Numbered from the stretch's first letter, positions 20,479 through 39,731 are shown. The stretch is DNA of 64,000 bases from an uncultured Gammaproteobacteria bacterium (GCA_964453605.1 CAYVOI010000001.1:241627-305626); one strand, 5' to 3'. Made by a program: numbers and translations. The notes: a model not told the origin generated them from the letters alone.

Positions 20479-20620
20479 TTTGACCTCCTTTTCAGGCCTA
20501 ATTTAAGGGACTATGTGGCGGTTATATTTGCCACGACCTTAGCATAGTAGCTTGTGTTTGTCAACCAAAAAACGCCAGGTTGGTGGCGCTCGTCTCGTAT
20601 GGGTTAGAAGGATAGTAGAG

Positions 20621-20797
20621 CTATGCTATAGCCTTGGCCAGTGTTTTGATGCAGCGGGTGCACATCCACAGGCGCTTGCCGCCAACCGTTTTGTACTGGA
20701 GGTTCAAGTGCTGGCGCTTGATGGTGGAGATGTTGGAGTGGCTGCGGGAGTTGGCCTTGTTGTAGCCTCGGCCACAGCGTTCACAAATTCGTGCCAT
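20621..20797 (-). CDS. rpmB: 50S ribosomal protein L28
   Basis: Minus-strand 58 aa MARICERCGRGYNKANSRSHSNISTIKRQHLNLQYKTVGGKRLWMCTRCIKTLAKAIA. It matches the L28 C-x-x-G-(8)-N-x-x-SHSN...NLQ pattern. Below the ORF-track length cutoff. Confidence 0.75.
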   Translation of the reverse strand: MARICERCGRGYNKANSRSHSNISTIKRQHLNLQYKTVGGKRLWMCTRCIKTLAKAIA

Positions 20798-20856
20798 AGG
20801 TATGGTAGTATTACTTACGTCCCACGTAGTCTAGCACCTTTGCTAACTTAGTCAAG

Positions 20857-21009
20857 TATGCCCGGTATGACAACTTTAGCTACGCTCACCATTCTGGCCC
20901 GATTTACCGACAAAGCATTAGTTTTCTATGTCAAGGTTATTGTTTAGTGCTAACCCAAACCACTTGGCTCGCGTAAGCGTGCCAGGCTAAAGTTGCTCTA
21001 CCGGGTATG
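20857..21009. mobile_element. TATG-flanked miniature inverted-repeat element, copy G
   Basis: TATGCCCGGTATGACAACTTTAGCTACGCTC...GCTAAAGTTGCTCTACCGGGTATG. Same terminal architecture as the six copies in the r-protein operon. The terminal ATG is the M50 peptidase start. Confidence 0.6.
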
Positions 21010-21654
21010 GACTTCACCCTCCCCCTACTGTTTTTCTTCTTCATCATTATTCCGTCCTCCATTTTGCACGAGTACGCGCACGGTTGGGTGGCGGATAAGC
21101 TTGGCGACCCTACCCCGAGGCTCAGTGGCCGGCTGACGCTGAACCCGTTGCCGCACATAGACCCTATGGGTACCCTGCTTTTGCCCTTAGGTCTGTTCCT
21201 CTTGACTCGCGGCAGCTTTCTCTTCGCCTACGCTAAGCCCGTGCCGTTTAACCCGCTGGCTCTCCGATGGCAGCGATGGGGGAGCGCGGCGGTGGCCATG
21301 GCCGGCCCGCTTACTAATTTGGCCGTGGCGTTTATTTGCGGCACGTTGCTCCAGGTGGCCCCCTTAAGTAACTGGAGCGTGCTTCTAGTCATAATAACCT
21401 ACGCCAACATTATGCTGGCGGTGTTTAACCTAGTGCCTATTCCGCCGCTCGACGGCTCTAAGATTCTCTACACCCTGCTGCCGGACCGCTACTACGCGGC
21501 CAAGGTGTGGCTGGAGCGGTACGGGTACTTTATACTTATCTTTTTTATCTTCTTCCTTTTTTCCGCTGTGCTTTCGCCTGTTATCCACTGGTTGTTCCAG
21601 TTGGCCGCTGGCCGCGTAGGTGAGCTGATACTGTTCCAAGGCCTGGGGGCTTGA
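21007..21654 (+). CDS. Site-2 protease family zinc metalloprotease (M50)
   Basis: HEYAHGWVA HExxH motif in a TM helix and the FNLVPIPPLDGSKIL LDG motif. Confidence 0.7.
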   Translation: MDFTLPLLFFFFIIIPSSILHEYAHGWVADKLGDPTPRLSGRLTLNPLPHIDPMGTLLLPLGLFLLTRGSFLFAYAKPVPFNPLALRWQRWGSAAVAMAGPLTNLAVAFICGTLLQVAPLSNWSVLLVIITYANIMLAVFNLVPIPPLDGSKILYTLLPDRYYAAKVWLERYGYFILIFFIFFLFSAVLSPVIHWLFQLAAGRVGELILFQGLGA

Positions 21655-21743
21655 CGACAGTAGAGCCTCCTGGTATGCTACGGGCGGAGGAATTGAGCTT
21701 GCATTAGCAGTTTATTTTTTTTACCGCTCGAAATAGTTAAGGT

Positions 21744-22160
21744 ATGCCGACTATCAACCAGCTCGTTCGCCGCTCTAGGCAGAGCTTAAAGCGAAAATCC
21801 AAGACGCCAGCGCTGGAGCCTGTCTTCAATACGCTTAAGCGCAAGCGCACCATGCTACAAAAAGGTAGCCCGTTTAAGCGTGGTGTGTGTGTAAAGGTAA
21901 CCACAACTACCCCAAAGAAACCGAACTCGGCGCTTCGCAAGATTGCCCGTGTCCGCCTCTCCAATGGTATGGAAGTTACGGCCTACATTCCTGGCATTGG
22001 CCACAACTTGCAAGAGCACTCTATTGTTATGATCCGCGGTGGCAGGGTAAAGGACTTGCCAGGTGTTCGCTACCATATTGTACGTGGTGTGTATGACACC
22101 TCGGGTGTGGAAGGTCGCAAGCAGGGTCGCTCGGTGTACGGTGTTAAGAAACCTTCCTAA
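21744..22160 (+). CDS. rpsL: 30S ribosomal protein S12
   Basis: [25 protein letters not shown]...; 138 aa. Confidence 0.95.
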
Positions 22161-22165
22161 ACTCT

Positions 22166-22633
22166 ATGCGTGGTAAGAAACAAGCACCTAAGCGCGCCAT
22201 TTTGCCTGACCCACGGTACCAGAGTGTGGTCGTGGCGAAGTTTGTGAACAATATTATGGAGCGCGGTAAGAAAACCGTGGCCCGTAAGATTGTGTACAGT
22301 GCGTTCGATATTTTGGCACAAAAGACCAAGCAAGACCCCAGGGACATTTTTGATTTAGCCATGAAGAACGTGGCCCCGCAGGTAGAGGTGCGGAGCCGCC
22401 GTGTTGGCGGTGGTAACTACCAGGTGCCGGTGGAAGTTAGGGGCGACCGCAAGCAGATGCTCGCTATGCGCTGGATAATCGACGCAGCCAGCGCCAAGAA
22501 GGGCAGGCCCATGCACCAGAAGTTGGCTGAAGAGCTCATGGCCGCCTCGCAGAACGAGGGCGAAGCCATAAAGAAGAAACTCGACGTGCACCGCATGGCC
22601 GAGGCCAACCGCGCCTTCGCGCACTTTGCCTAA
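22166..22633 (+). CDS. rpsG: 30S ribosomal protein S7
   Basis: 155 aa. Its position after rpsL and conserved S7 length and N-terminus. Confidence 0.95.
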   Translation: MRGKKQAPKRAILPDPRYQSVVVAKFVNNIMERGKKTVARKIVYSAFDILAQKTKQDPRDIFDLAMKNVAPQVEVRSRRVGGGNYQVPVEVRGDRKQMLAMRWIIDAASAKKGRPMHQKLAEELMAASQNEGEAIKKKLDVHRMAEANRAFAHFA

Positions 22634-22639
22634 ACTTTT

Positions 22640-22870
22640 ATGCCAGACGCGCCGGCTGAGACGAAGGTTTGTCCGAAGTGTGGGGGAGTGATGGAACAAG
22701 GTAAGATTAAACCAGTGAGTCAAGTTCCAGGTTTACTCGTTGGTTCAGCGACCGTTGGCAGTCAAAGGTGGTTTAATGGTTCAGAACCAGCAGATGTAAA
22801 GCATGGTCAAAGGATCCAAGCTTTTGCCTGTACCAAGTGCGGGTATTTGGAATCTTACTTAGAAAAGTAA
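22640..22870 (+). CDS. Small zinc-ribbon protein inserted between rpsG and fusA
   Basis: 76 aa with CPKCGG ... CTKCGY. Confidence 0.45.
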
Positions 22871-22907
22871 TAGGTTTTATCAGTCAGACATTCGTACTGA
22901 ATTTTTT

Positions 22908-24992
22908 ATGCCTCGTGAATACTCTCTCGAGAACACCCGTAACATAGGCGTTATCGCTCACATCGACGCTGGCAAAACCACCGTCAGCGAGCGCATTTTG
23001 TTCTACACCGGTAAAAAGCACAAGATTGGTGAGGTGCACGAAGGTGACACCACCATGGACTGGATGGAGCAAGAGCGCGAGCGCGGCATCACCATCACCG
23101 CGGCGGCTACGACCTGCTTTTGGAAGAACACGCGCATAAACCTTATCGACACGCCAGGGCACATTGACTTCACGGTCGAGGTAAAGCGCAGTTTGCGTGT
23201 GCTCGATGGTGGTGTGGTGGTGTTCGACGGTGTAGCTGGCGTGGAGCCACAGTCAGAAACCAACTGGCGCTACGCTGATGACTACAAGGTGCCGCGCATT
23301 TGTTTTATAAACAAAATGGACCGCATGGGTGCGGACTTTTACGCTGATGTGGCTAGCATTCACGAGCGTCTGACCAAGCGTGCTTACCCGGTGCAGCTCC
23401 CTATTGGTGCCGCTGAGACATTTGCTGGCATTATCGACCTGCTGACGCGCAAAGCTGTTATCTACAAAGACGACCTGGGCAAGGAGTGGGACGAAACCGA
23501 CGTGCCAGAAGACATGAAGGCTAAAGTTGAAGAGTGGCGCCACAAGCTGGTGGAGGCGATTGCCGAGCACGACGACAAGTTGTTGCACCTCTACCTCGAA
23601 GGTAAGGCCGAGGAAATTCCTGTAGCCGATCTTAAGCGCGTGCTGCGTCAGGCCTGCATAGCCAACAGCATCGTGCCTATTTTCTGCGGGAGTGCTTTGA
23701 AGAACAAGGGTGTGCAGTTCTTACTCGACGGTGTGGCTGACTATCTGCCCTCTCCTTTGGACATTCCGGCAGTTAAAGCTACTAATCCTAAAACCGGTGA
23801 GCCTATAGAGCGCCACGCCTCAGACACTGAACCCTTTACCGCCTTGGCGTTTAAAATTGCCACTGACCCGTTTGTGGGGAAGCTCGCCTTCTTCCGCGTA
23901 TACTCTGGTGTGCTTAAAGCTGGTTCTTATGTTTTGAATTCATCAACTGGCGAGAAAGAGCGCATTTCAAGAATCGTTCGACTCCACGCCAACTCGCGTG
24001 AGGACGTAGCGGAGGTTTACGCTGGTGAAATCGCTGCCGCGGTCGGGCTTAAGGCCACCACCACCGGCAATACGCTCTGTGATCCTGAAAGCCCAGTGCT
24101 GCTCGAGTCCATTGTCTTCCCCGAGCCAGTTATTTCGCTCGCTATTGAACCCAAGACCAAGGTGGATCAGGAGAAAATGGGTGTGGCGCTGCAGAAGCTC
24201 GCTGAAGAGGACCCCACCTTCCGCGTGCGCTCGAACGAGGAAACTGGACAGCTCATTATTTGGGGTATGGGCGAGCTGCACCTCGACATTATTGTCGACC
24301 GCATGAAACGCGAGTTCAAGGTAGAGGCTAACGTGGGTAAGCCGCAGGTGGCGTACAAAGAAACCATCACCCGTACTGCTCAGGCCGAAGGTAAGTACAT
24401 TCGGCAAACTGGTGGTCATGGTCAGTACGGCCACTGCTGGATTCGCGTGGAGCCACAGACGGAAAAGGGTAAGGGCTTTGAGTTCTTGGACGAAATTAAG
24501 GGGGGCACTGTTCCGCGCGAGTTCATCAAGCCGATTCAAAAAGGCGTGGAAGAGGCCATGGACAACGGTGTGCTGGCTGGCTACCCCATAGTCGACGTTA
24601 AGGTGGCCGTGTACGACGGTAGCTACCACGATGTCGACTCTTCGGAGGCCGCCTTCAAGATCGCCGGCTCCATGGCATTCCAAGCTGCCTTTAAGCTAGC
24701 GGGGCCAGCCATACTTGAGCCGATTATGAAAGTGGAAGTGATAACGCCTGAGGCCAACATGGGTGATGTGATTGGCGACCTTAACTCCAAGCGCGGGCAG
24801 ATACGGGAAATGCGCGATCGCACGGGCCTCAAGGTGGTAGATGCTGAAGTGCCTTTGAGCGAGATGTTCGGCTACGCCACCAATCTCCGCTCCATGACGC
24901 AAGGCCGCGGCAGCTACACCATGGAGTTTGACCACTACGCCGAGGTACCGCGGCACGTGGCTGAGGCTATCATTGGTCAGGGTAAAAAGTAG
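22908..24992 (+). CDS. fusA: Elongation factor G
   Basis: 694 aa, [10 protein letters not shown]-domain, full EF-G domain series. Confidence 0.95.
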
Positions 24993-24996
24993 AGCC

Positions 24997-25317
24997 ATGG
25001 CAGTACTGGTGGACCTAGATCAGCTGGCACGTATTTTTGGGCGACAAGGTGAGCGCGTGGTGCTGGTACTGCCGAGTGGTGACAGCGTAGTGCTGGTGCC
25101 CTTGTCAGAGTACGAACAGCTGGTCGGTGGTACACGTGCCCAAGCCAAACCAGTTACCCTCGAAGCACAGCCTCGCCGCAGCCCAGGCCGTCGGCCAGCC
25201 CCTAAACCCATTGAGCCAATGCCAGCCCAGACTAAGTCAGAATCTCCAGAGTCTATAGATCCGCTGCAGGGGGGTCTCTCCGATGACGACCAGTACTTCC
25301 CCGAGCCTCTGGAATAG
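24997..25317 (+). CDS. Phd/YefM-like antitoxin-fold protein with a Pro-rich tail
   Basis: MAVLVDLDQLARIFGRQGERVVLVLPSGDSVVLVPLSEYEQL resembles the YefM/Phd N-terminal motif. The C-terminal half is low complexity. Confidence 0.35.
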   Translation: MAVLVDLDQLARIFGRQGERVVLVLPSGDSVVLVPLSEYEQLVGGTRAQAKPVTLEAQPRRSPGRRPAPKPIEPMPAQTKSESPESIDPLQGGLSDDDQYFPEPLE

Positions 25318-25475
25318 GCTCCGGCCCAGCGGGACTTGTCAAAGTTTTACCCCCGTGCTAGAGTGAACAAGCATTCTTGGCCTAAAAGGGCCACTTTACC
25401 AAAACTTTAACCCTAATTATTTACGTTTCGTTGAGGCGTTTAACCTCTCGAAACCTAAGCTTTAAGCCAACCCCT

Positions 25476-26678
25476 ATGGCAGATAAGTTCGATCGCAGCA
25501 AGCCGCACGTCAACGTTGGTACTATTGGCCACGTCGACCACGGCAAGACCACCCTCACCGCAGCTTTGCTGCAGGTGCTCAAAGTTACTGGCCACAAGTC
25601 GCAAGACAAGAGCGTGGACCAGATTGACAACGCGCCTGAGGAAAAGGCACGTGGTATTACCATCAACACTGCTCACGTGGAGTACGAGAGCGACAAGCGC
25701 CACTACGCGCACGTCGACTGTCCTGGCCACGCTGACTACGTGAAGAACATGATAACCGGTGCCGCGCAGATGGACGGTGCTATTTTGGTGGTGTCGGCCG
25801 CTGACGGCCCCATGCCCCAGACTCGCGAGCACATCCTGCTCGCGAGGCAGGTAGGCGTGCCGTACATTGTGGTGTTCTTGAACAAGGTAGACATGGTCGA
25901 CGAAAAAGACCTAGTGGACCTGGTAGAAGAGGAAGTCAGGGACCTTTTGAAGAAGTACGAGTTCCCTGGCGACAAGACCCCCATTATCCGCGGGTCCGCT
26001 CTTAAGGCGCTCGAGGCAGCTGCTGCTGGTAAGAAGGACGACCCGGCACTCCAGCCTGTACTCGACCTGGTGAAGGCACTGGATGAGTACATCCCTGAGC
26101 CAGTGCGCGACACTGACAAGCCGTTCCTGATGCCGATTGAGGACATTTTCTCTATCGAAGGCCGTGGTACCGTGGTGACTGGTCGTATTGAGCGTGGGTT
26201 AGTGAAACTGAACGACGAAGTAGAAATTGTGGGTCTCCGCGCTACGCAGAAGACCGTTATCACCGGTATTGAAATGTTCAACAAGCAGCTCGACGAGGGC
26301 CGCGCCGGTGACAACGCTGGGCTCTTGCTCCGTGGTACCAAGAAAGAAGACGTGGAGCGCGGGCAGGTGCTCGCCAAGCCAGGGAGTGTGACCCCGCACA
26401 CCGAGTTCGAGGCTGAGGTCTACATCCTCACCAAGGAGGAAGGTGGCCGCCACACGCCGTTCCTTAAAGGTTACAAGCCCCAGTTCTACATCCGCACCAC
26501 CGACGTGACTGGTGAAGTTGGCCTGCCGGCTGGTGCCGAAATGGTTATGCCTGGTGACCGCGTGAACATTACCGTGAAGCTTATTACCCCCGTGGCTCTG
26601 GAAGAGAAGATGCGTTTCGCCATTCGCGAGGGTGGCCGCACGGTGGGCGCTGGGGTGGTAGCCAAGATCACCAAGTAA
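25476..26678 (+). CDS. tuf: Elongation factor Tu
   Basis: [31 protein letters not shown]...; 400 aa. Confidence 0.95.
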
Positions 26679-26725
26679 CCCTTACTCGGTTTCCGTTCCC
26701 CGTTCTTTCCTAAAGTCTACAGTCC

Positions 26726-27097
26726 ATGACGACGCGAGCAGACACAACCCACGCCAAGGTGGCCCACACGCAGGCCCCGGAAGAGGAAGAGTCACGCTCG
26801 CGTCTTCGTATCCGCATCCGCGCCTACGACCACAAGATTATCGACCAGTCCGTCCGGACCATTCTCGACACCGTCCTCCGGTCCGGCGCCAAGGTGATGG
26901 GACCTATACCGCTTCCGACGGAGAAAACCCGCTTCACCGTGAACAGCTCCTCGTTCATCGATAAGAACGCTCGCGAGCAGTACGAAATGCGGGTGCACAA
27001 GCGGCTCTTAGACATCGTAGACCCAACCCCCAAGACCATCGACGCTCTAACCAACCTCAGCTTACCAGCAGGGGTTGACCTAGAGATTAAGATGTAG
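26726..27097 (+). CDS. rpsJ: 30S ribosomal protein S10
   Basis: [15 protein letters not shown]... with a short N-terminal extension. Confidence 0.9.
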
Positions 27098-27311
27098 TAG
27101 AGTTACAACGTTCTTGAAATCCTTCTAAAACTTCCCCTACGTGTAGCCTTAGCACTGCGACGGTGGCCCTAAAGACCACACCTACAGCTGCCAAAGCCCA
27201 CACCTACGGAGTTCCTCTCACTTCTCACCACCTTACCCCGACATTCTTGTATGACAACCGTTTACCGGAGTTTTGGAGTTGTGGGTAGGTAAACGGTTTT
27301 TGTTTAGAGCT

Positions 27312-27457
27312 TATGCCCAGCATGACAACTTCGCTAGTGCTCGATTCAACCACCATGTATAACAACCTTATGTTTCGTATAAAGTCTTTATTCACTAACC
27401 ATTCGCTTACTTCTCCTCGCACTGAGGTGGTTGAGCGAAGTTGCTCTGCTGGGTATG
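27312..27457. mobile_element. TATG-flanked miniature inverted-repeat element, copy A
   Basis: TATGCCCAGCATGACAACTTCGCTAGTGCTCG...GAGCGAAGTTGCTCTGCTGGGTATG. Terminal inverted repeat CCCAGCA/TGCTGGG, flanking direct TATG. Its 3' ATG is the rplC start. A terminator lies just upstream at about 27258-27308. Confidence 0.6.
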
Positions 27458-28063
27458 TCTAAGTTCATCCTCGCCACCAAAGTCAGCATGTCACGTACCT
27501 TCAAAGCCGATGGTACGTCTGTGGCTGTGACGACGCTTAAGGCTGAGCCTATGGTGGTGACCCAGGTGAAAACTGCAGACAAAGACGGCTACCAAGCCGT
27601 GCAGGTGGGGGCTGGCTCTCGGCGCAAGGTTTCAAAGAGCGTGGCTGGTCACGTGAAACCTACAGGCAAAACGTTCCGTCGCCTGAAAGAGTTCCGGATG
27701 ATAGGAGAGTTCCAGGTTGGCCAGAGTGTCGACCTTACGCAATTTGCACCAGGGGATAAGGTGAACGTAGTTGGTGTTTCCAAAGGTAAGGGGTTCCAGG
27801 GTGTGGTGAGGCGTCACGGGTTCCACGGTCACCCGCCAACCCACGGTCACAAAGATCAGGAGCGCAGGTCAGGCTCTATTGGCGCTGGTGGTTTACAACA
27901 CGTGCGCAAGGGTATGCGCATGGCCGGCCGCATGGGTGGTGATCGCATTACCGTGCACAACCTGGAGGTAGTAGCCGTAGCGCCCGAGAAGCACGAGCTC
28001 ACCTTAAAAGGTGCCGTGCCAGGGGCCAGGCACGGTTTGCTTATGGTAACTAGCGTAAAGTAG
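27455..28063 (+). CDS. rplC: 50S ribosomal protein L3
   Basis: MSKFILATKVSMSRTFKADG...; the ORF-track N-terminus MSEVALLG is derived from the inserted element. Confidence 0.9.
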   Translation: MSKFILATKVSMSRTFKADGTSVAVTTLKAEPMVVTQVKTADKDGYQAVQVGAGSRRKVSKSVAGHVKPTGKTFRRLKEFRMIGEFQVGQSVDLTQFAPGDKVNVVGVSKGKGFQGVVRRHGFHGHPPTHGHKDQERRSGSIGAGGLQHVRKGMRMAGRMGGDRITVHNLEVVAVAPEKHELTLKGAVPGARHGLLMVTSVK

Positions 28064-28067
28064 TTTT

Positions 28068-28703
28068 ATGGCAACGTCGTCTCTCCAAGTGGTAGATAGC
28101 AAAGGCCAGGCGGTCAAACAGGTGGAGCTGCCCTCCACGGTGCTTGAGCGCAAGGTCAAACCTTCCGTGGTACACCAGGTGGTGGTCGGGTATGCTGCCA
28201 ACCGTCGCGCCGGTACGGCACACACCAAAGACCGCAGTGAAGTGTCGGGTGGTGGTAAGAAGCCGTGGAAGCAGAAGGGGACTGGGCGGGCTCGCCAGGG
28301 CTCTATTCGCGCACCTCAGTGGGTGGGCGGTGGAGTTGTGTTTGGCCCACGCAATACCCGTAACTACAGCCACCGGCTGACTGATGAGCTGAAACACTCA
28401 GCCCTCGCCATGGTTGTAGCTGACGCGCTTCGCTCTGGCAATGTTACGGTGGTAGATTCGTTCCCGACTGAACCAAAGACCAAAGTGTTCGCGGCTTTTC
28501 TTAAAGCGGTGCAGCCAGCTGGCACCAAGCGCTCCCTCGTACTTCTTACGGAAGGGGAACGCGAGATGAGGCGCGGCCTACAAAACTTACCCAACACTGG
28601 TGTGATGGCCGTTAAACAGCTTAACGCTTATGATGGCTTAAGCTTCCCGCGCTGGGTGGTATCGCAACTCGGGCTCACTGAACTTCTCAAAGCAATTCGC
28701 TAA
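28068..28703 (+). CDS. rplD: 50S ribosomal protein L4
   Basis: 211 aa L4 family with KQKGTGRARQGS. Confidence 0.9.
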   Translation: MATSSLQVVDSKGQAVKQVELPSTVLERKVKPSVVHQVVVGYAANRRAGTAHTKDRSEVSGGGKKPWKQKGTGRARQGSIRAPQWVGGGVVFGPRNTRNYSHRLTDELKHSALAMVVADALRSGNVTVVDSFPTEPKTKVFAAFLKAVQPAGTKRSLVLLTEGEREMRRGLQNLPNTGVMAVKQLNAYDGLSFPRWVVSQLGLTELLKAIR

Positions 28704-28708
28704 CTTGT

Positions 28709-29047
28709 ATGGCATTACTCGGACGCAAAAAGTCAGTTGCAGGTACAGCTACCACCGCCTCAACCGGCAAGCCCATGCTGGGGGTTACCTTAGTGCCGCT
28801 CGTTTCGGAAAAGAGCAGCCGTTTGCAGGCGCAAGGACAGTACACCTTTGCCACCGCGCCAACTGCGACTAAGGTGATGGTTAAGAAAATGGTGGAGCGC
28901 GCTTACAACGTGCACGTAGTAGGAGTAAACAGTGTCAGGCTGCCTCGTAAGTTTGTACGCCGCGGCCGCAGCCAAGGCACAACTAAAATCCGCAAGCACT
29001 TTGTAGTTCGCTTAAAGACAGGTGAGTCTATCGCCGTTAAAGTTTAA
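28709..29047 (+). CDS. rplW: 50S ribosomal protein L23
   Basis: 112 aa; operon position and L23-like core. Real start may be the internal M. Confidence 0.85.
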   Translation: MALLGRKKSVAGTATTASTGKPMLGVTLVPLVSEKSSRLQAQGQYTFATAPTATKVMVKKMVERAYNVHVVGVNSVRLPRKFVRRGRSQGTTKIRKHFVVRLKTGESIAVKV

Positions 29048-29051
29048 GCCG

Positions 29052-29197
29052 TATGCCCAGCATGACAACTTCGCTAGCGCTCCTACCAACCACTATGTGC
29101 CAGAACCTTATGCTTCGTACACAGACCTTATTCACTAACCACCAACTTACTCCCACTCGCGCTTGGGTGGTTGAGCGAAGTTGCTCTGCCGGGTATG
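29052..29197. mobile_element. TATG-flanked miniature inverted-repeat element, copy B
   Basis: 146 nt, TATGCCCAGCATGACAACTTCGCTAGCGCTCC...GAGCGAAGTTGCTCTGCCGGGTATG. Identical to copy E over its full length. Its 3' ATG is the rplB start. Confidence 0.65.
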
Positions 29198-30034
29198 CCA
29201 GTTAAACTCTACCGACCAACAACCCCAGGCCGCCGGCACGCCGGCATTCTGACCGCCGAGCTTACCAACAAGCGGCCGGAGCGTTCTCTGGTACGCGGGG
29301 GCAGGTCTAAGGCCGGGCGCAATTTCCAGGGTAAAATAACCACCCGTCATCGTGGTGGTGGTGTGAAGCGCTTGCTCAGAATGCTCGACAGCCGCCGCGA
29401 CAAGTACGGCGTGACTGCACGCGTCGTAGCCCTTGAGTACGACCCCGGCCGAACAGCCAACTTGGCGCTCCTCAGTTACCGCGATGGCGAAAAGCGCTAC
29501 ATTTTGGCGCCGGAAGGTTTGCGCGTGGGCCAGGAAGTGGTTTCGGCCAAAACAGCGGTGGAGGCTAAAGTCGGCAACCGCTTGCCCTTTAAGTTTATTC
29601 CCGCCGGGTTACAAGTGCACGACATTGAACTGACGCCTGGTCAGGGTGGCGCCATGGTGCGCTCGGCAGGAAGTTGGGCTACGTTTATGTCTATCGAAGG
29701 TGATCAGGCCAGGTTGAAGCTCCCCTCGGGTGAAGTACGCAGCGTGTCGGTGGATTGTCTCGCGACCATTGGGCAAGTGGGGAACATTGATCATGCCAAC
29801 GTGCGCCTGGGCAAAGCTGGGCGCCGTCGCCACCTCGGCTTCCGTCCGTCAGTTCGTGGTAAAGCTATGAACCCGGTGGACCACCCACATGGTGGCGGTG
29901 AAGGGCACAACCCCATTGGTATGAAGCACCCCAAGACACCCTGGGGTAAACCCGCACTCGGCGTGCCGACACGCAAGCGAACCAAGGCTTCCAACCGTTT
30001 CATTATTTCTCGCCGCCCCAAGCGGACTAAGTAA
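29195..30034 (+). CDS. rplB: 50S ribosomal protein L2
   Basis: [17 protein letters not shown]... and HPHGGGEG motif. Confidence 0.95.
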
Positions 30035-30039
30035 TTCCT

Positions 30040-30399
30040 ATGTCACGTAGCTTAAAGAAAGGTCCGTTTGTAGACCCCAAGCTCCTCCAGAAAATGGCCA
30101 AGGTAAAGGTGGGTGATAAAACCGTCATCAAAACCTGGTCACGGGATTCCACCATCACTCCTGAAATGGTTGGGTTCACCTTTGGTGTGCATAATGGCAA
30201 AACCCACGTGGCCGTGCTCGTAGTGGAGAACATGGTCGGGCATAAGCTCGGGGAGTTTTCTCCAACTCGTAAGTTCCAGGGCCATGGCGGTAAGATGGCT
30301 AAAGAGCAGGCTCTGGCAGCTGCCGCCGCAGCCGATGCTGCCAAAGCAGCTGCTCAGGCGCCAGCGGCCGAGGCTAAGAAAGAACCAGCTAAGAAGTAA
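30040..30399 (+). CDS. rpsS: 30S ribosomal protein S19, with Ala-rich C-terminal extension
   Basis: [16 protein letters not shown]... plus about 30 extra residues [21 protein letters not shown]. Confidence 0.9.
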
Positions 30400-30405
30400 A
30401 CTTTT

Positions 30406-30762
30406 ATGGACGTTTCAGCTAAACTCATGTTCTTTAGGGCCTCGCCCCGCAAGGTGAAGTTGGTGATAGACACCGTGCGCCGTATGCCTTTGGGTAAGGC
30501 TCTACAGCAGCTCAGCGTGCTGCCGCAGGCGGCAGCTAAGCCCGTGGCCAAGTTGCTCGCTTCGGCCGCCGCCAATGCTACTAATAACTTAAAGCTCGAT
30601 CGCAGCGCCTTGTGGGTGAAGCAGATTACCGTAGGCCAGGGTCCTCGGCTTAAGCGCTGGCGGCCACGGGCTATGGGTCGTGCTACACCTATACACCGCC
30701 CCACCTCGCACCTCAAGGTAGTCCTGAGCGACGAGAAGGCTAAGGTTATTCGGACGCGCTAA
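30406..30762 (+). CDS. rplV: 50S ribosomal protein L22
   Basis: 118 aa, L22 family, operon order. Confidence 0.9.
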   Translation: MDVSAKLMFFRASPRKVKLVIDTVRRMPLGKALQQLSVLPQAAAKPVAKLLASAAANATNNLKLDRSALWVKQITVGQGPRLKRWRPRAMGRATPIHRPTSHLKVVLSDEKAKVIRTR

Positions 30763-30773
30763 TTTATACACCT

Positions 30774-31460
30774 ATGGGTCACAAAGTTCATCCTAAAGTA
30801 TTCCGTCTCGGTACCGTCTACACCTGGAAGTCCAAGTGGGTCGGCCGTCGTGACTACCGCGAGCTGTTAGAAGCCGATGTCCGCCTGAGGCGTTGGCTCA
30901 AGAAAAAGCTCCGTGGTTCTTCTGTTTCGCAAATCGAGGTGGAGCGCGGTGCTTCAACGCTGACCGTTACCATCTACACGGCTAAACCAGGGTTGGTTAT
31001 CGGTCGTGGTGGCGCGCAGGTGGAAGAGCTGAAGAAAGAGCTTAAGGCCAAGTTCATGAAACCCGGACAGAACTTCCAACTCAATATTCAGGAAGTGGCT
31101 AACCCCATGATGTCGGCAGAAATTGTGGCTGAGAACATGGCCCTGGAGCTCGAGAAGCGCTTGCCATTTAGGCGCGTGATGAAACAGGCTATGGACCAGG
31201 TGATGAAGGCCGGGGCTTTAGGGGTCAAGGTTATGATCGGTGGGCGCCTGAACGGTTCAGAAATCGCCCGCAGCGAAAAACTCAGCATCGGTAAGGTGCC
31301 GCTCCACACCATTCGCGCCGAAGTGGACTACTCTCGCACCACTGCGCACATGACCTATGGGGTTTTGGGTGTGAAGGTCTGGATAAATCGCGGTGAGGTG
31401 TTTGCTCCCAGCCGTCCTATTACGGTCGCTCAGGTGCGCGCCGCTAGCCGTGATCGCTAA
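30774..31460 (+). CDS. rpsC: 30S ribosomal protein S3
   Basis: [13 protein letters not shown]...; 228 aa. Confidence 0.95.
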
Positions 31461-31471
31461 GGAACACTTTT

Positions 31472-31888
31472 ATGTTGATACCGAAGAAAGTTAAATACCG
31501 TAAGACCCACCGGGGTGACCAGATCCGCGGGGTAGCACTTCGCAAAGCGACGTTAAGCTTTGGTAGCTTTGGCCTCAAAACCTTAGAAGCTGGTTGGATA
31601 ACCTCCCGCCAGATCGAGGCCGCCAGGCGCGCCATTACTGGCCACCTCCAGCGCCGGGGTAAAGTGTGGATCCGCATTTTCCCCGACAAGTCGGTAACGG
31701 TGAAGGGTAATGAAATTCGCATGGGCGGTGGTAAGGGCGCTGTGGACCACTACGTGGCTCCCGTGAAGCCCGGTACTGTGCTGTTTGAAATGGACGGCGT
31801 AACCCACGAGCTGGCGCGCGAAGCCCTAAGGCTCGCTGCCCACAAGATGCCCGTGAAGACCACTCTCATTAGCCGCCAGTCAGCCTAA
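31472..31888 (+). CDS. rplP: 50S ribosomal protein L16
   Basis: [15 protein letters not shown]... Confidence 0.95.
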
Positions 31889-31897
31889 ACCTTACCT

Positions 31898-32110
31898 ATG
31901 TCGAACCAGAAGTCCGAGCAGAAGAAACAGCTCTTTGCCCTCGAGGCGCCCCAAGCCACAGAGCAGCTTATGGCTGCCCGCCTGGAGCTGCAGAGTCTCC
32001 GCGCTAAGGCCGCTGGGTCAGACCTTAAGAACGTCCGCGCTATCCGTAAGGTTCGCACCACCATTGCCCGTTTAGCTACACGCCTCAAGCAGCTTCAAGC
32101 TACCAAGTAA
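31898..32110 (+). CDS. rpmC: 50S ribosomal protein L29
   Basis: 70 aa coiled helical protein in the L29 position. Confidence 0.85.
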   Translation: MSNQKSEQKKQLFALEAPQATEQLMAARLELQSLRAKAAGSDLKNVRAIRKVRTTIARLATRLKQLQATK

Positions 32111-32114
32111 CTCC

Positions 32115-32261
32115 TATGCCCAGCATGACAACTTTGCTAGAGCTCGCGGCCACGGCTAACACTACCACCCCTATGTACTCTACTGCTCATACAATTACCA
32201 TTAACGACTCGCAGCCAAGCTCGCTCCATTGGGGCCGAGCAAAGTTGCCAGCTCAGGTATG
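32115..32261. mobile_element. TATG-flanked miniature inverted-repeat element, copy C (more diverged)
   Basis: TATGCCCAGCATGACAACTTTGCTAGAGCTCGCGG...GAGCAAAGTTGCCAGCTCAGGTATG. Its 3' ATG is the rpsQ start. Confidence 0.55.
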
Positions 32262-32510
32262 ACTACCAAACCCATTAAACGTCAGCTCGAAGGTGAAGTA
32301 GTGTCCGACCGCGCCAACAAAACACGCGTGGTGTTGGTTTCTCGTGTGCAGGTGCACCCCAAGTACGGCAAACGGTTCCGCACCTCAGAGCGCTACCAGG
32401 CACACGACGAACAGAACACCTACAAGGTGGGGGACAGGGTAGTGATTGAGGAAACCCGGCCGTACTCCAGGACCAAGCGGTTCCGCATTATTTCAAAGGT
32501 TAAGGCGTAA
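32259..32510 (+). CDS. rpsQ: 30S ribosomal protein S17
   Basis: MTTKPIKRQLEGEVVSDRANKTRVV... Confidence 0.9.
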   Translation: MTTKPIKRQLEGEVVSDRANKTRVVLVSRVQVHPKYGKRFRTSERYQAHDEQNTYKVGDRVVIEETRPYSRTKRFRIISKVKA

Positions 32511-32526
32511 TACTGTTTAGATCCCT

Positions 32527-32898
32527 ATGGTCCAACTCCGTTCCATGCTCAAAGTGGCCGACAACACTGGCGCCCGCAAGGTGCAGTGCATTAAGGTGTT
32601 AGGCGGCTACCAGAAGCGCTACGCTAAGCTCAGCGATATTATTACCGTGGTGGTGAAAGACGCTCAACCCCACGGCATGGTGAAGAAGAGCGACGTGCTC
32701 CACGCTGTGCTCGTACGCACACACAAAGAGTACCGCCGCCCCGACGGCTCCTACATTCGCTTTGACGACAACGCTGTGGTTATTATCGACAAGAAGACCA
32801 AAGAACCCAAAGGTACTCGCATCTTCGGCCCGGTGGCCAGGGAGCTCAGGGCCAAGGGTTTTCAGAAGATTATTTCCCTAGCGCCTGAAGTGCTGTAA
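32527..32898 (+). CDS. rplN: 50S ribosomal protein L14
   Basis: [27 protein letters not shown]. Confidence 0.95.
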
Positions 32899-32908
32899 CG
32901 CCCCGTTT

Positions 32909-33235
32909 ATGAACCTCAAGGTAAAAAAGAACGACACCGTAGTAGTTATCTCTGGCCGTGATAAGGGCAAGCAGGGTAAGGTTACCCAGGTGTTCCCGCG
33001 TGAGGCCATGGTAGTGGCTGAAGGTATCAACCTCCGGGTGAAACACCTCAAGGCTCGCTCGGGCAGCCAGAGTGGCAACAAGGTGCAGTACGCTGCCCCA
33101 ATCAGTGCCGCCAAGGTTATGGTGGTCTGCCCCCAGTGCTCTAAACCTACGCGCGTGAGGATGCTGAAAGCCGAAGACGGTCGGATAATCCGGAGCTGCC
33201 ACCGCTGCCAGCAACCACTAACGAGCGCTGCCTAA
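32909..33235 (+). CDS. rplX: 50S ribosomal protein L24, with C-terminal CxxC...CxxC zinc-ribbon extension
   Basis: KOW-domain N-terminus VISGRDKGKQGKV plus CPQC...CHRC tail. Confidence 0.9.
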   Translation: MNLKVKKNDTVVVISGRDKGKQGKVTQVFPREAMVVAEGINLRVKHLKARSGSQSGNKVQYAAPISAAKVMVVCPQCSKPTRVRMLKAEDGRIIRSCHRCQQPLTSAA

Positions 33236-33245
33236 CTGTTGCCTT

Positions 33246-33806
33246 ATGACTACGAAACAGGTTGATCTCAAAGCCGAATACCAGAGTAAGGTTGTGCCTC
33301 AGCTCAAGCAAGAGTTTGGCTACAAGAACACCATGGCCGTGCCGAAGCTCCTTAAGGTGAGCCTCAACGTTGGCTTTGGCCAAGTGGCGCGCGACCCAAA
33401 GCTCCAAGAAGTGGCGGTTAAGACTTTAGGTCGCATCACCGGCCAAAAGCCAGTGGTCACGCTGGCCCGTAAATCCATTTCCAATTTCAAAATCCGCCAG
33501 GGTATGCCGGTCGGGGCCATGGTAACACTCAGGGGCAAACGCATGTACGACTTTTTAACTAAGCTTACCCGTGTGGCGTTGCCTCGCGTGAGGGACTTCC
33601 GCGGCTTGCCGCCCAATTCAGTTGATGCCCGGGGTAACCTCTCCATTGGTTTCCGTGAGCACACGGTGTTCCCCGAAATCCGTGCTGACGAGTTGGAAGG
33701 TTTGCACGGCCTAGAAGTTTCCATTTCAACCACGGCCGGCAGCAAAAACCCTGGTAAGCGGCTGTTTGAACTCCTCGGTTTCCCTTTTAGCCAACCCAAC
33801 GCCTAA
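33246..33806 (+). CDS. rplE: 50S ribosomal protein L5
   Basis: 186 aa L5 family. Confidence 0.95.
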
Positions 33807-33811
33807 GTTGT

Positions 33812-34006
33812 ATGTCTACTACTGCTCAAGAGAACAAATCACGCGCCTCCCTCACGAACCCGAAGTACTCCACGCGCATCGTGCGTCGGTGTTGGCGCTG
33901 TGGCCGTAAGCACGGCTACATGCGGAAGTTCAACCTCTGCCGTATTTGTTTCCGGGAACTCGCGAACAACGGTGAAATTCCAGGCATTACCAAGGCCAGC
34001 TGGTAG
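33812..34006 (+). CDS. rpsN: 30S ribosomal protein S14, Zn-ribbon type Z
   Basis: 64 aa with [20 protein letters not shown]. Confidence 0.9.
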
Positions 34007-34023
34007 CCCAACTTTCCACTCCT

Positions 34024-34410
34024 ATGACAGACCCCATTAGCGACATGCTCACACGTATCAGGAACGCTATCCTCGTGAAAAAGCCCGAGGTGGTGGTGCC
34101 GTACTCCAGGCTCAAAGCTAACTTGGCACAGATTTTGGTGCACGAAGGGTACCTCGAGTCGGTGAGCGAGGTAGAGGCTCCGTTCCGCTCCCTGAAGCTC
34201 AAACTCTCCTACCAAGCTGGTCAGTCAGCCATCCGGAATTTGAAGCGCGTTTCCACCCCAGGCCGCAGAACGTACGCCAAGGCGCCTGAGCTGCCACGCG
34301 TGCTCTCTGGACTTGGTATTGCCATTATTTCTACCTCCCAAGGCCTCATGACGAACCGCGATGCCCGAGCCAAGAAGCTTGGTGGTGAGGTTATTTGCGA
34401 AATCTACTAG
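34024..34410 (+). CDS. rpsH: 30S ribosomal protein S8
   Basis: MTDPISDMLTRIRNA... Confidence 0.9.
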   Translation: MTDPISDMLTRIRNAILVKKPEVVVPYSRLKANLAQILVHEGYLESVSEVEAPFRSLKLKLSYQAGQSAIRNLKRVSTPGRRTYAKAPELPRVLSGLGIAIISTSQGLMTNRDARAKKLGGEVICEIY

Positions 34411-34557
34411 TATGCCCGGCATGACAACTTCGCTGGAGCTCGCGGCCGCAGTATTCAGTAACACTACTATGTACAATACTTCTGTCATTCGTATTACCAT
34501 TAACACGCAGCCTGGCTCGCTCCCAAGCGGACGAGCGAAGTTGCTAGCCCAGGTATG
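34411..34557. mobile_element. TATG-flanked miniature inverted-repeat element, copy D
   Basis: TATGCCCGGCATGACAACTTCGCTGGAGCTCGCGG...GAGCGAAGTTGCTAGCCCAGGTATG. Its 3' ATG is the rplF start. Confidence 0.6.
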
Positions 34558-35109
34558 TCACGCTTAGGTAAGCTCCCCATCACCATACCCTCCGGCGTTC
34601 AGGTAACGCCTAAAGAAACCGAGGTCGCCTTCAAAGGCCCTAAGGGTGAGTTTGTGCAAGCTCTGCCGCCACAGGTTAAGGTTGCCCTGGAAGGCACCAC
34701 CTTGACCGTGCTCGCTCCAGCCTCAGATTCAAGCGAGGCCAGGGCGCTGTGGGGCCTGGCTCGGCAGCTCCTCCAGAATGCGGTTACCGGTGTGGCTCAA
34801 GGCTTTACCAAAAAGCTTGAGCTCTCGGGTATTGGGTTTAAGGCTGCAGTAGAGGGTAAAGACCTCGTGCTTAACCTTGGCTTTTCTCACCCGGTCCGCT
34901 TTGCGGTGCCCCAGGGCGTTGCTATCACCGTGGAAAAGAACAACCTCATCACCGTTACCGGCGCTTCTAAGCAGCAGGTGGGGCAGGTAGCCGCAGAAAT
35001 TCGTTCACTCAAGAAGCCAGAGCCCTACAAGGGTAAGGGCATTAAGTACGCCGATGAGACCATTCGCCGCAAGGCTGGTAAGGTCGTTAAGGCCGCTGGC
35101 GCAAAGTAA
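34555..35109 (+). CDS. rplF: 50S ribosomal protein L6
   Basis: MSRLGKLPITIPSGVQV... Confidence 0.9.
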   Translation: MSRLGKLPITIPSGVQVTPKETEVAFKGPKGEFVQALPPQVKVALEGTTLTVLAPASDSSEARALWGLARQLLQNAVTGVAQGFTKKLELSGIGFKAAVEGKDLVLNLGFSHPVRFAVPQGVAITVEKNNLITVTGASKQQVGQVAAEIRSLKKPEPYKGKGIKYADETIRRKAGKVVKAAGAK

Positions 35110-35114
35110 CCACC

Positions 35115-35260
35115 TATGCCCAGCATGACAACTTCGCTAGCGCTCCTACCAACCACTATGTGCCAGAACCTTATGCTTCGTACACAGACCTTATTCACTA
35201 ACCACCAACTTACTCCCACTCGCGCTTGGGTGGTTGAGCGAAGTTGCTCTGCCGGGTATG
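35115..35260. mobile_element. TATG-flanked miniature inverted-repeat element, copy E (identical to copy B)
   Basis: 146/146 identity with 29052..29197. Its 3' ATG is the rplR start. Confidence 0.65.
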
Positions 35261-35614
35261 CCTAAGTCTATTCTCAAACCACGTACCATTCGCCACCGCC
35301 GTCTGCGTTCGCACTTGGCGGGCACAGCAAAGCGGCCACGCCTAGCTGTTTGGCGGAGCCTCCGGCGCATTACTGCCCAGCTCATTAACGACGACACTCG
35401 CCGTACGCTCGCTGCGGCTTCAAGCCAAGAGCTCACGGGCGCGGCCAAGAAGGCTAAGCCGGTGGAGCAAGCTATGGCAGTAGGGAAGATGATCGCCGAG
35501 CGCGCTAAGGCCAAAGGTGTCACAACGGTGGTGTTTGACCGCGGTGGCCAGGCGTACCACGGCCGCGTAAAGGCGCTAGCTCAGGGTGCGCGTGAGGGCG
35601 GTTTACAGTTCTAA
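35258..35614 (+). CDS. rplR: 50S ribosomal protein L18
   Basis: [17 protein letters not shown]... L18 family. Confidence 0.9.
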
Positions 35615-35628
35615 CACATTATATTCGT

Positions 35629-36171
35629 ATGCCACAGAACATGGGACAACAGCGAGGTAGGGGTCAGGGCGCGGGCGGCCGCGGTGGTTTTGGTGGTCGC
35701 GGTGGCCGTGGGCCACGCCGTGACCGGGTGGAGGATGAGTTTGACCAGCGCGTTGTAGAGCTAGCACGCGTCACCCGCGTGATGGCCGGTGGTAAGCGCA
35801 TGCGCTTTAGGGCCTTGGTGGTTTTGGGCAACAAAAAGGGCCGTGTCGGCGTTGGTTTGGCTAAGGGAGCTGACGTGAGCCTCGCCGTCGAGAAGGCCGC
35901 TACTAAAGCCCGCAAGAGTCTGGTGCAAGTGCCCCTGAAAGAGGGTACGTTCCCGCACGAAATTACGGTTAAGTACAAGAGCGCTCGCGTGATGTTGAAA
36001 CCAGCCAGGGTTGGTACGGGTATTATCGCCGGCGGCCCGGTACGTGTGGTGCTAGAAATGGCGGGTGTGCCGAACGTGGTCAGCAAGACGTTGGGTTCCC
36101 CCAATAAGATTAACAACATTCGGGCTGTGTTTAAGGCCTTCTCGCAGATGAAGCCTATTAAGGCCGCCTAA
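35629..36171 (+). CDS. rpsE: 30S ribosomal protein S5
   Basis: Gly/Arg-rich N-terminus followed by the S5 dsRBD and C-terminal domains. No rpmD (L30) follows. Confidence 0.9.
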   Translation: MPQNMGQQRGRGQGAGGRGGFGGRGGRGPRRDRVEDEFDQRVVELARVTRVMAGGKRMRFRALVVLGNKKGRVGVGLAKGADVSLAVEKAATKARKSLVQVPLKEGTFPHEITVKYKSARVMLKPARVGTGIIAGGPVRVVLEMAGVPNVVSKTLGSPNKINNIRAVFKAFSQMKPIKAA

Positions 36172-36174
36172 CCC

Positions 36175-36324
36175 TATGCCCGGCATGACAACTTCGCTGG
36201 AGCTCGCTTCGGCCACGGCAGGTAAAGAAATTCTTATGCTCTATAAGTTAAACTTCAGTACTACCATTAATATGCAGCTCCGCTCGCTCCCTAGTGGCCG
36301 AGCGAAGTTGCTCTGCTAGGTATG
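36175..36324. mobile_element. TATG-flanked miniature inverted-repeat element, copy F
   Basis: TATGCCCGGCATGACAACTTCGCTGGAGCTCGC...GAGCGAAGTTGCTCTGCTAGGTATG. Its 3' ATG is the rplO start. Confidence 0.6.
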
Positions 36325-36807
36325 TCACTTACCCTCCAAAACCTCAAACCCGCTCACGGGTCGCAACGCAACCGCAAGCGCTTGGGCCGAGGTAACGCCT
36401 CAGGCCATGGTGCCTACTCTACCCGCGGTATCAAGGGTCAGCGCGCTCGCCAAGGCGGGCGTAAGGGCTTAACCCAGCTGGGGGCCAAGCACTTTATTTC
36501 CCACCTGCCCAAAGTTCGCGGGTTCCAGAGCTTTAAGGCTAAACCCCAGGTGGTAAACATTGCCGACCTTACCAAGGTTACCCCCGATAGCACTGTGGAC
36601 GCCCGCGTGTTGGTAAGTTTAGGCTTGATTCGCGACCACCGTGTGGCGGTAAAACTCATTGGCAGTGCTAAGTTGCCCAAGCTCACCATTACCGTACAGG
36701 CAGCTACCGAGGGTGTGCGCGCAGCCGTGGCGGCCGCTGGTGGCACGCTGGAGCTTAAACCCCTTGCCGCCACCACTAAGACTGCTACAGTTACTTCAGC
36801 GGAGTAG
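36322..36807 (+). CDS. rplO: 50S ribosomal protein L15
   Basis: MSLTLQNLKPAHGSQRNRKRLGRG... Confidence 0.9.
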   Translation: MSLTLQNLKPAHGSQRNRKRLGRGNASGHGAYSTRGIKGQRARQGGRKGLTQLGAKHFISHLPKVRGFQSFKAKPQVVNIADLTKVTPDSTVDARVLVSLGLIRDHRVAVKLIGSAKLPKLTITVQAATEGVRAAVAAAGGTLELKPLAATTKTATVTSAE

Positions 36808-36829
36808 ACTTTCGCCTTCAACCTGAATT

Positions 36830-38107: not shown

Positions 38108-38127
38108 GTTGTTGCCATTTTCGACCA

Positions 38128-38162
38128 CGAAATCCTTGGCTAACGCCAAGGATTTTTTGTTT
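38128..38162 (+). terminator. Rho-independent terminator after secY
   Basis: AAATCCTTGGC-taac-GCCAAGGATTT followed by TTTTGTTT. Confidence 0.6.
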
Positions 38163-38244
38163 ATTGTTCTACAGTCTGTTCCACAACCCTTGACTTTTTG
38201 GCGGTTTTGGACTATGTTTAATAGTTCTTTAATAATGGCTGCTT

Positions 38245-39415: not shown

Positions 39416-39731
39416 TATGCCCAGTAACAAAACTTCGCATGTTCTTCTATACCTACCTACTTCAGAGCGCTAAAGACGGTAAGCACTATATCGGCTTTAC
39501 AAAAGATTTACGCGGTCGGATTGAAGAACACAATGCAGGTAAGAGTTTTGCAACGAGACCTCGGGTGCCATTAGTCCTTGTTTACTATGAAGCGTGTCGA
39601 AGTGAACAAGATGCCAAACAGCGGGAGAAGTACCTCAAAACTACAGCCGGCCGTAGGTTCCTGGCCAAGCGTCTTCGACGTTTTCGATTGCTGAGTTTGG
39701 CATCTTGGTGAAGTTATTGTTACTGGGTATG
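39416..39731. mobile_element. 316-bp TATG-flanked inverted-repeat element carrying a GIY-YIG nuclease gene
   Basis: TATG-CCCAGTAACAAAACTTCGC...GGTGAAGTTATTGTTACTGGG-TATG. The 11-bp perfect TIR CCCAGTAACAA/TTGTTACTGGG and subterminal AACTTCGC/GAAGTT blocks are homologous to the ends of the 146-bp elements. The terminal ATG is the map start. Confidence 0.55.
39439..39711 (+). CDS. GIY-YIG nuclease family protein (YhbQ/UPF0213-like)
   Basis: MFFYTYLLQSAKDGKHYIGFTKDLRGRIEEHNAGKSFATRPRVPLVLVYYEA..REKYLK shows the YxY...YIG...R..EH.N core of the GIY-YIG fold. 90 aa. Confidence 0.8.
   Translation: MFFYTYLLQSAKDGKHYIGFTKDLRGRIEEHNAGKSFATRPRVPLVLVYYEACRSEQDAKQREKYLKTTAGRRFLAKRLRRFRLLSLASW

Follow-up and report, generated by a model that had tools for sequence, protein, structure and literature searches.

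Insertions at start codons of the S10/spc operon

The 64,000-nt stretch of DNA analysed here (CAYVOI010000001.1:241627-305626; hereafter the window) carries the S10/spc ribosomal protein operon of a member of the candidate phyla radiation (CPR, or Patescibacteria), whose closest named L5 matches lie in the Kerfeldbacteria (~71%). Seven short inverted-repeat elements, copies A to G, are set into it, six of them in the operon, and each is bounded on both sides by TATG, with the 3′ TATG supplying the ATG of the next gene. Copy A (20857..21009, + strand, 153 nt) lies in the divergent promoter region adjoining rpmB (20797..20621, − strand) and ends on the start of an M50 peptidase gene (ATG at 21007). 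The others, likewise on the + strand, are copy B (27312..27457, 146 nt) at rplC (ATG at 27455), copy C (29052..29197, 146 nt) at rplB (29195), copy D (32115..32261, 147 nt) at rpsQ (32259), copy E (34411..34557, 147 nt) at rplF (34555), copy F (35115..35260, 146 nt) at rplR (35258) and copy G (36175..36324, 150 nt) at rplO (36322). An earlier note on this DNA had reported these seven elements, and its coordinates were exact in all cases; it had overlooked an eighth, full-length member of the family in the same window (element H, 39416-39731), which is described below.

The borders of the short copies are sharply defined. Searched across the 64-kb window with a nucleotide profile of the copies (nhmmer), the DNA yielded no full-length match besides these seven (E 2e-26 to 9e-36), together with one weak match at the left end of element H, and the 5′ motif CCCRGYATGACAACTTYRC was matched 13 times at ≤3 mismatches versus 0.13 expected. 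Among the weaker motif matches in the window, those at 26512 and 57810 were dismissed as chance, and that at 39420 belongs to element H. Every copy has the form TATG-CCC(A/G)G(C/T)ATGACAACTT...AAGTTGC...GG-TATG, and the TATG on either side is invariant. The terminal inverted repeats are real: in copies A, B, C and F, the four that were scored, complementarity extends to 16-17 of the 20 outermost bases, and compensatory changes occur in 10 of the 25 stem pairs. Interiors are poorly conserved, and most pairs of copies are 65-82% identical, the remaining pair being copies C and F, which are 100% identical (these are evidently the identical 'B and E' of the earlier note, which would have been numbered among the six operon copies). 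The C/F identity ends at the 5′ TATG and extends just 2 nt beyond the 3′ TATG, and the repeated unit is therefore delimited by the two TATGs. By Pfam, the genes opened by the 3′ ATGs encode the M50 peptidase and proteins L3, L2, S17, L6, L18 and L15; the N-termini of these proteins align with those of orthologues in element-free relatives, so the 3′ ATG is the true start. Short, multicopy (seven copies of 146-153 nt in 16 kb) and lacking any transposase-sized open reading frame (ORF), the copies are miniature inverted-repeat transposable elements (MITEs) by structural definition.

Empty orthologous sites, which the earlier note had proposed to look for in sister genomes, were found, and the segments are not conserved leaders. 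In the closest relative recovered (L123, L5 95% identical), the S8|L6 (..CTACTAG TATG TCGCGC..), L6|L18 (..AAATCG TATG CCTAAG..) and S5|L15 (..AAAGTT TATG GCACTC..) junctions each carry a single TATG and no element. Relatives L121 and L122 (83%) are empty at L3, L2, S17 and L15 (in L121, the orthologous sites of copies B, C, D and G, with a single TATG at the copy B site), and their L6|L18 junction holds a diverged copy whose termini differ and which in L121 is 73% identical to copy F. Junctions are compact and element-free throughout the stretch covered in L218, L219, L220 and L222. The copy E site (S8|L6) is thus empty in L123, L222, L220 and L218/L219, and in L221 it holds an independent copy with a different terminal-repeat variant; the copy F site (L6|L18) is empty in L123, L222 and L220; and at the site of element H, adk and map overlap, without an element, in L218/L219. 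Single TATGs stand at orthologous junctions in L123, L121, L222, L220 and L218.

The flanking tetranucleotide varies across the wider family yet matches on the two sides (TATG, CATG and ATGA, with TATA, TAAA and CAAA in the 77-nt forms described below), as expected of a true target duplication. TATG is thereby shown to be a 4-bp target-site duplication, and the insertions to be recent and recurrent. The recent mobility proposed in the earlier note is borne out by the empty sister sites, the two identical copies and the occurrence of different variants at one junction across lineages. Indirect signs of activity are presence or absence between genomes with 95% identical L5, the identical copies, and a nested insertion in L124, where the TATG regenerated by a full-length element has received a short copy directly after it. 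The otherwise element-free L218 retains a left end on its own (CCCAGTAACAAAACTTTACCATGTT.., 15886-15925), after the map stop and ahead of the ruvX TATG, a remnant that testifies to former occupation followed by deletion.

The target coincides with the way genes start in this lineage. T-ATG is the start context of 27 of the 28 window genes and of 22 of the 24 genes in the element-free L218, and is thus a lineage-wide initiation context independent of the elements, a point that the earlier note had missed. Across window positions 21700-40900 and in L218, starts are almost always preceded by a pyrimidine run without a Shine-Dalgarno sequence, and stop-to-start spacers are 0-16 nt. TATG occurs 257 + 142 times on the two strands of the window, and all eight occupied sites are sense start codons. 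The same holds for every recovered insertion with TATG or CATG flanks, with sense orientation in 27 of the 27 insertions of the subfamily defined below. In each insertion the 5′ ATG copy keeps the original upstream context of the host gene and the 3′ copy is the start of that gene.

Two other features lie at the same junctions. Most other spacers in the operon are 4-16 nt, much as the earlier note had it (5-15 nt), but the S10-L3 spacer is ~215 nt even without its element (~215-230 nt across window ~27100-27311 and L121 4124-4352); a conserved terminator-like hairpin, ..GGTAAACGG(T/C)TTTTGTTT, closes it immediately upstream of the L3 TATG, and the spacer may serve as an attenuator or leader. 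At the S8|L6 junction, L121 (11239-12000) carries an inserted gene for a 253-aa membrane-anchored protein, which starts at TATATG directly after the S8 stop and lacks terminal repeats.

A full-length relative encoding a GIY-YIG nuclease

Element H (39416..39731, + strand, 316 nt) separates the adk stop (39408-39410) from the map start (39729), and was found by tblastn with the protein of a related locus (39442-39669, 63% identity, E 1e-29). Its architecture, TATG|CCCAGTAACAAAACTTCGC...GGTGAAGTTATTGTTACTGGG|TATG, is the same as that of the seven short copies, and it contains an ORF of 90 aa (39439..39711, + strand). A 1-nt shift puts this ORF out of frame with the 5′ duplicated ATG, so that it begins at an internal ATG; the duplicated ATG opens a short ORF of its own (39417-39473).

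On sequence and structural comparison, the 90-aa product is a member of the GIY-YIG nuclease superfamily, in its UPF0213/Slx1-like branch. It matches Pfam PF01541 (E 9e-16, 58 bits versus a cut-off of 22.6) and, in the PDB, the UPF0213 protein BH0048 (1zg2, E 4e-6). Foldseek with its predicted structure (pLDDT 81) likewise placed 1zg2 first, followed by the Slx1 nuclease domain, with I-TevI further away. The window protein also has the residues of the conserved motif (the Tyr of GIY and of YIG, with Arg, His and Glu): Y6, Y17, G19, R27, H31 and E63, which are invariant or nearly so across 29 homologues. TIGR01453, the model for group I intron endonucleases, gave scores of 18-21 bits against a cut-off of 56. 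Among 108 close homologues, all those with a source name are from CPR, and many database homologues open with MPSNNTSP.., the translated left end of an H-type element. The protein family is large, with 931 clusters (50% identity) at E≤1e-10 and 6865 at E≤1e-3.

A scan of metagenome contigs for the nuclease yielded at least 590 relatives, the best 80 loci of which we examined. Nearly all of these 80 are bracketed by 20-26-nt inverted repeats opening CCCNGT, and the GIY-YIG gene is the only ORF ever found between such termini. The full-length form is ~300-350 bp with a single ORF for an 80-100-aa GIY-YIG nuclease, and the element occurs at unrelated genes across CPR lineages (M50, map, pyrG, ABC transporter and pilB-type genes). 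Within the CCC[AG]GTA.. subfamily, 27 distinct insertions were recovered, 26 with TATG/TATG flanks and 1 with CATG/CATG. For the 24 that were computationally scored, the ORF beginning at the 3′ ATG is 75-565 aa long, and the other 3 precede annotated genes (rplR, an ABC-2 membrane gene and CTP synthase). A logo of the 27 shows only the usual second-codon bias conserved beyond TATG; eight different junctions in the window and more than 20 different host genes elsewhere have TATG alone in common. One further full-length copy has ATGA/ATGA flanks.

The nuclease ORF begins at the 5′ duplicated ATG, to which it is fused, in ~11 of the ~19 distinct full-length elements; its first codons (MPGMTTS or MPSNNTS) are then the left terminal repeat itself, and its end lies 9-69 nt before the host ATG. 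A locus from Kaiserbacteria (L087) illustrates the arrangement and ties it to the window: it reads TATG|CCCGGTATGACAACTTCGG..100-aa GIY-YIG ORF from the 5′ ATG (MPGMTTSDQNKFYYVYILES...)..GAAGTTGTCATAACCGGG|TATG, the last ATG being the pyrG start, and its left end is 91-100% identical to the window copies over 20-22 nt. As this nuclease starts at the 5′ ATG, the MPGMTTS or MPSMTTS that opens the reading frames of the short copies is the translated left terminal repeat. The short copies are very probably non-autonomous, MITE-like members of a CPR/Patescibacteria terminal-inverted-repeat family whose full-length form carries a single UPF0213/Slx1-like GIY-YIG ORF, a putative parent that had escaped the earlier note.

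A separate 16-mer DNA scan of metagenome contigs gave 120 loci, mostly chance matches, with ~9 informative (L029, L036, L048, L056, L073, L087, L088, L117 and perhaps L098). Four of these (L029, L048, L056 and L117) are 77-nt forms with an asymmetry between the left (..ATGAC..) and right (..AGAGC..) arms and an internal GCGAAGC-type mini-hairpin; L048, L056 and L117, duplicating TAAA or CAAA, are followed 15-18 nt later by a start codon, and L029 has TATA flanks, with no start codon identified after the copy. In a Chitinophagaceae metagenome-assembled genome (L036, 4400-6700), the unit GATACCGGG-TCAGG-CCCGGTATGACAACTTCGT is repeated several times beside a 102-aa GIY-YIG ORF; it looks like a right end abutting a left end, and related ends thus seem to be present outside CPR, in Bacteroidota. 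The assemblies of one population (L124-L133) give way to stretches of N immediately beyond the right end of a GIY-YIG element, so that the repeats evidently fragment metagenome assemblies and shift calls of the downstream ABC-2 gene. Viral collections contained neither copies of the DNA pattern nor relatives of the nuclease.

Possible translation through the copies and a proposed mode of mobilization

The earlier note had anticipated that, if transcribed, the copies would fold into hairpins over the adjacent start codons. Predicted folds have energies of -40 to -51 kcal/mol and a stem of ~25 bp in which the two element ends pair with each other and both UAUGs are paired at the base. The host's 3′ AUG would thus be buried in this stem, and it lacks a Shine-Dalgarno sequence. 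A feature that the earlier note had not remarked on is a reading frame that runs from the 5′ ATG through the copy to the host start: in 9 of the 10 copies between same-strand genes (8 of the 9 distinct sequences), the first stop in this frame falls between -13 and +10 nt from the host ATG. The nine open copies are B to G and those in L121, L124 and L073. In the window the through-ORFs span 27313-27462 (B, 49 aa), 29053-29205 (C, 50 aa), 32116-32262 (D, whose stop overlaps the host start as ATGA), 34412-34567 (E, 51 aa), 35116-35265 (F, 49 aa) and 36176-36319 (G, whose TAG is 2 nt ahead of the host ATG in TAG-GT-ATG). Two copies that do not lie between same-strand genes close early, copy A (from 20858) at 20945-20947, -62 nt from the host ATG, and the L088 copy, which is not at a gene start, at -47. 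The interiors of the short copies have nothing in common with the nuclease genes beyond the ~22-nt termini, and the open frame is therefore not inherited coding sequence; on the same ground we rejected an origin of the short copies by in-frame deletion within the nuclease ORF. These patterns suggest that the through-ORF acts as a relay that melts the hairpin and preserves translational coupling.

A mechanism can be proposed that joins these observations. The GIY-YIG nuclease would be the mobilizing enzyme, probably recognizing the terminal-repeat hairpin or a cruciform and cutting at the repeat/TATG junctions, with a 4-nt stagger that would leave the non-palindromic TATG as a cohesive end. Such a cut over TATG would explain the duplication, the precise empty sites and the fixed orientation. 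In support of this role, the nuclease fold is closest to that of Slx1, a structure-selective nuclease of branched DNA. Once the element is inserted, ribosomes initiating at the native 5′ AUG would read through the short copy, melting the ~25-bp stem, then terminate beside the host AUG and reinitiate there; read in this way, an insertion would stay nearly neutral inside tightly coupled essential operons. Taken whole, this reading describes a new class of prokaryotic transposon that has a minimal Slx1/UPF0213-type GIY-YIG nuclease as its sole protein, moves by structure-guided staggered cleavage at TATG, and lives as a translational parasite that captures a start codon, with its initiation context, for an ORF of its own and returns a regenerated ATG to the host gene, its short, non-coding derivatives being bound to a relay ORF through which tightly coupled essential operons would tolerate them. 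We put this composite forward tentatively, as somewhat short of an even chance. There is a substantial chance that a new transposon class is represented here.

Several points weigh against this reading. To our knowledge, GIY-YIG nucleases hydrolyse DNA and are not known for strand transfer or transposition, so mobilization would need host ligation or repair, a route for which we found no precedent. The termini of element H (CCCAGTAACAAAACTT) differ from those of the seven short copies (CCCRGCATGACAACTT), and no cognate full-length partner of the short copies was seen in the 64-kb window. A second subfamily (CCCCGTTAGAG.. termini), in which the nuclease has its own internal ATG and which has its own 66-114-nt derivatives, shows no consistent duplication. 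Purifying selection alone, in a gene-dense genome and without targeting beyond TATG, can explain the restriction to start codons, and gene orientation is confounded with replication direction, cumulative GC skew rising across the whole window; the fixed orientation could reflect a non-palindromic cohesive end, asymmetric target recognition, strand bias or selection. The relay, for its part, is confronted by the in-operon copy of L221, which stops at -33, and by an open-frame statistic that is moderate (~2.5e-5 with eight independent copies, or ~4e-3 with four lineages).

Of the other explanations, the most probable, although we think it somewhat doubtful, accepts the insertions as real and takes the through-ORF as non-functional, a product of chance or composition, with the host gene translated from the 3′ AUG directly or after processing of the hairpin RNA. 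The interiors amount to only ~31 codons, so that shuffled interiors remain open with a probability of 0.19-0.37 per copy; the copies are phylogenetically related; copy A and, less so, the L221 copy close early in front of host genes that are presumably expressed; and some antisense frames are also stop-free. That nine of ten same-strand copies nevertheless stay open to within -13 to +10 nt despite 18-35% divergence, indels and different lengths (stop-free frames number 5 of 45 among the other frames), with interiors that owe nothing to the nuclease ORF and a 3′ AUG held in the stem without a Shine-Dalgarno sequence, favours a function for the frame. Far less probable is that the elements are a conserved cis-regulatory leader RNA of ribosomal protein genes, or intron-like RNA removed from the transcript: the S10/spc location, the strong predicted structure and the compensatory stem changes are what such an RNA would show, but we consider it extremely unlikely given empty sites at every junction in close relatives, the same element at M50, map, pyrG, ABC transporter and pilB-type genes, the poorly conserved interiors, and the absence of any Rfam match in 20500-40000 even at E≤1 (in Rfam only tRNAs reached the gathering score). 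Group I and II introns and small ribozymes were rejected on size, boundary sequences and the absence of Rfam matches, and promoter and terminator scans gave background levels, with nothing meaningful placed in the elements.

The identity of the mobilizing enzyme admits two further alternatives. An ordinary MITE could be moved in trans by a DDE-type transposase encoded elsewhere, with the GIY-YIG gene as a passenger, either cargo or a homing-endonuclease gene hitch-hiking along; DDE transposases are what normally moves MITEs that have inverted termini and short duplications, and the want of known strand transfer by GIY-YIG enzymes and the distinct termini of element H fit this account. We judge it unlikely, since almost all of the best 80 loci have the GIY-YIG gene as the sole ORF between the termini, the left terminal repeat itself encodes its first codons, strict sense orientation (27/27) is unusual for DDE elements, and none of the 20 larger flanking ORFs scanned in the window has a transposase domain (the only recombinase is a large serine recombinase beside tRNA-Ser genes). 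The other alternative, single-strand 'peel and paste' transposition of the IS200/IS605 or REP kind, would take only the left TATG as target, the right one being a cleavage site that belongs to the element, with no real duplication and with orientation set by the replication fork. The tetranucleotide target, hairpin-forming ends, apparently precise empty sites and single leading-strand orientation speak for it; however, the flank varies yet is equal on both sides, the ends pair mutually and not each as its own subterminal hairpin, and no HUH (Y1) transposase is associated with the elements or was found among the 20 flanking window ORFs scanned, the ORF within the elements being GIY-YIG, and we regard this alternative as quite improbable.

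Neighbouring features, known systems and implications

Two other parts of the window are low in GC. Positions 1-6230 form a low-GC block (0.43-0.46) in which a large serine recombinase gene (3433-5121, 562 aa) adjoins a set of three − strand tRNA-Ser genes (5092-5182, 5609-5698 and 6126-6213, at ~515-nt spacing); the block has the look of an island integrated at tRNA-Ser, its attachment tRNAs duplicated. The last of these tRNA genes lies within an extra 12-14-bp inverted repeat, CCCCGTACGAGAGC / GCTCTTCTACGGGG (6114-6227), whose tip, CCCCGT, resembles the termini of the second GIY-YIG subfamily. A very low-GC patch (0.38) at 51867-54200, adjoining tRNA-Asn, holds a 278-aa ORF (52078-52914) and a D12-class N6-adenine DNA methyltransferase gene (52961-54157), and is possibly an acquired restriction-modification module.

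The elements share traits with several known systems. Bacterial MITEs co-transcribed with their neighbours include the Correia elements of Neisseria, ERIC/IRU and RUP, and the window copies resemble these in size (100-150 bp), terminal inverted repeats, short target duplication, copy number, position near or between genes and the long hairpin formed on transcription. They differ in duplicating a 4-bp start-codon TATG and not TA, in their strict gene-relative orientation and the reading frame through the element, and in that the family's only full-length relatives carry a GIY-YIG nuclease and not a DDE transposase. Free-standing GIY-YIG homing endonuclease genes (phage T4 Seg, I-TevI) offer the same catalytic domain and are likewise small selfish genes placed between conserved genes and co-expressed with them, but they have a long specific target, one site per genome and an added DNA-binding domain, without terminal repeats or duplication, whereas the elements here have a bare 80-100-aa domain, many unrelated sites sharing only TATG, and short derivatives. 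We rejected a free-standing homing endonuclease, given the lack of a single long target, the TIGR01453 score below cut-off and a length of only 80-100 aa.

Very small size, hairpin dependence, a tetranucleotide target, strand-specific orientation, apparently precise excision and abundant short derivatives recall IS200/IS605, its palindrome-associated derivatives and REP/RAYT systems, from which the family is set apart by ends that pair mutually, a true duplication and the lack of any HUH tyrosine transposase seen. The Rickettsia palindromic elements and the mitochondrial 'byp' elements of Magnusiomyces are insertions tolerated at the level of translation; like them, the window copies are selfish palindromic insertions in essential genes whose cost would be neutralized by the way ribosomes read them. 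Those elements lie inside coding sequences and are translated in frame or bypassed, whereas the window copies occupy the start codon exactly and restore it, and ribosomes appear to read them as a short ORF in its own right, coupled to the host gene. In the full-text literature searched, which lacks most subscription papers, we found neither terminal-repeat elements with a GIY-YIG gene nor MITEs that duplicate a start codon.

Bacterial insertion sequences are classed by a few transposase chemistries (DDE, DEDD, HUH, serine and tyrosine), and an element with a bare GIY-YIG nuclease as its sole gene, its own terminal inverted repeats, a target duplication and miniature derivatives would add another. 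We know of no accepted function for the small UPF0213/COG2827 GIY-YIG proteins, and a role in selfish elements, if true, would explain many of them. For metagenomics, the copies disturb gene calling in CPR metagenome-assembled genomes, through false small ORFs, mis-set starts and assembly breaks, and at the same time provide sensitive strain-level markers. The logic of the insertion is itself unusual, in that a start codon is borrowed and then returned in the operon with the strongest conservation and the highest expression in a minimal genome; should the relay ORF be real, these copies would offer a natural, testable system for termination-reinitiation and for Shine-Dalgarno-independent initiation in CPR.

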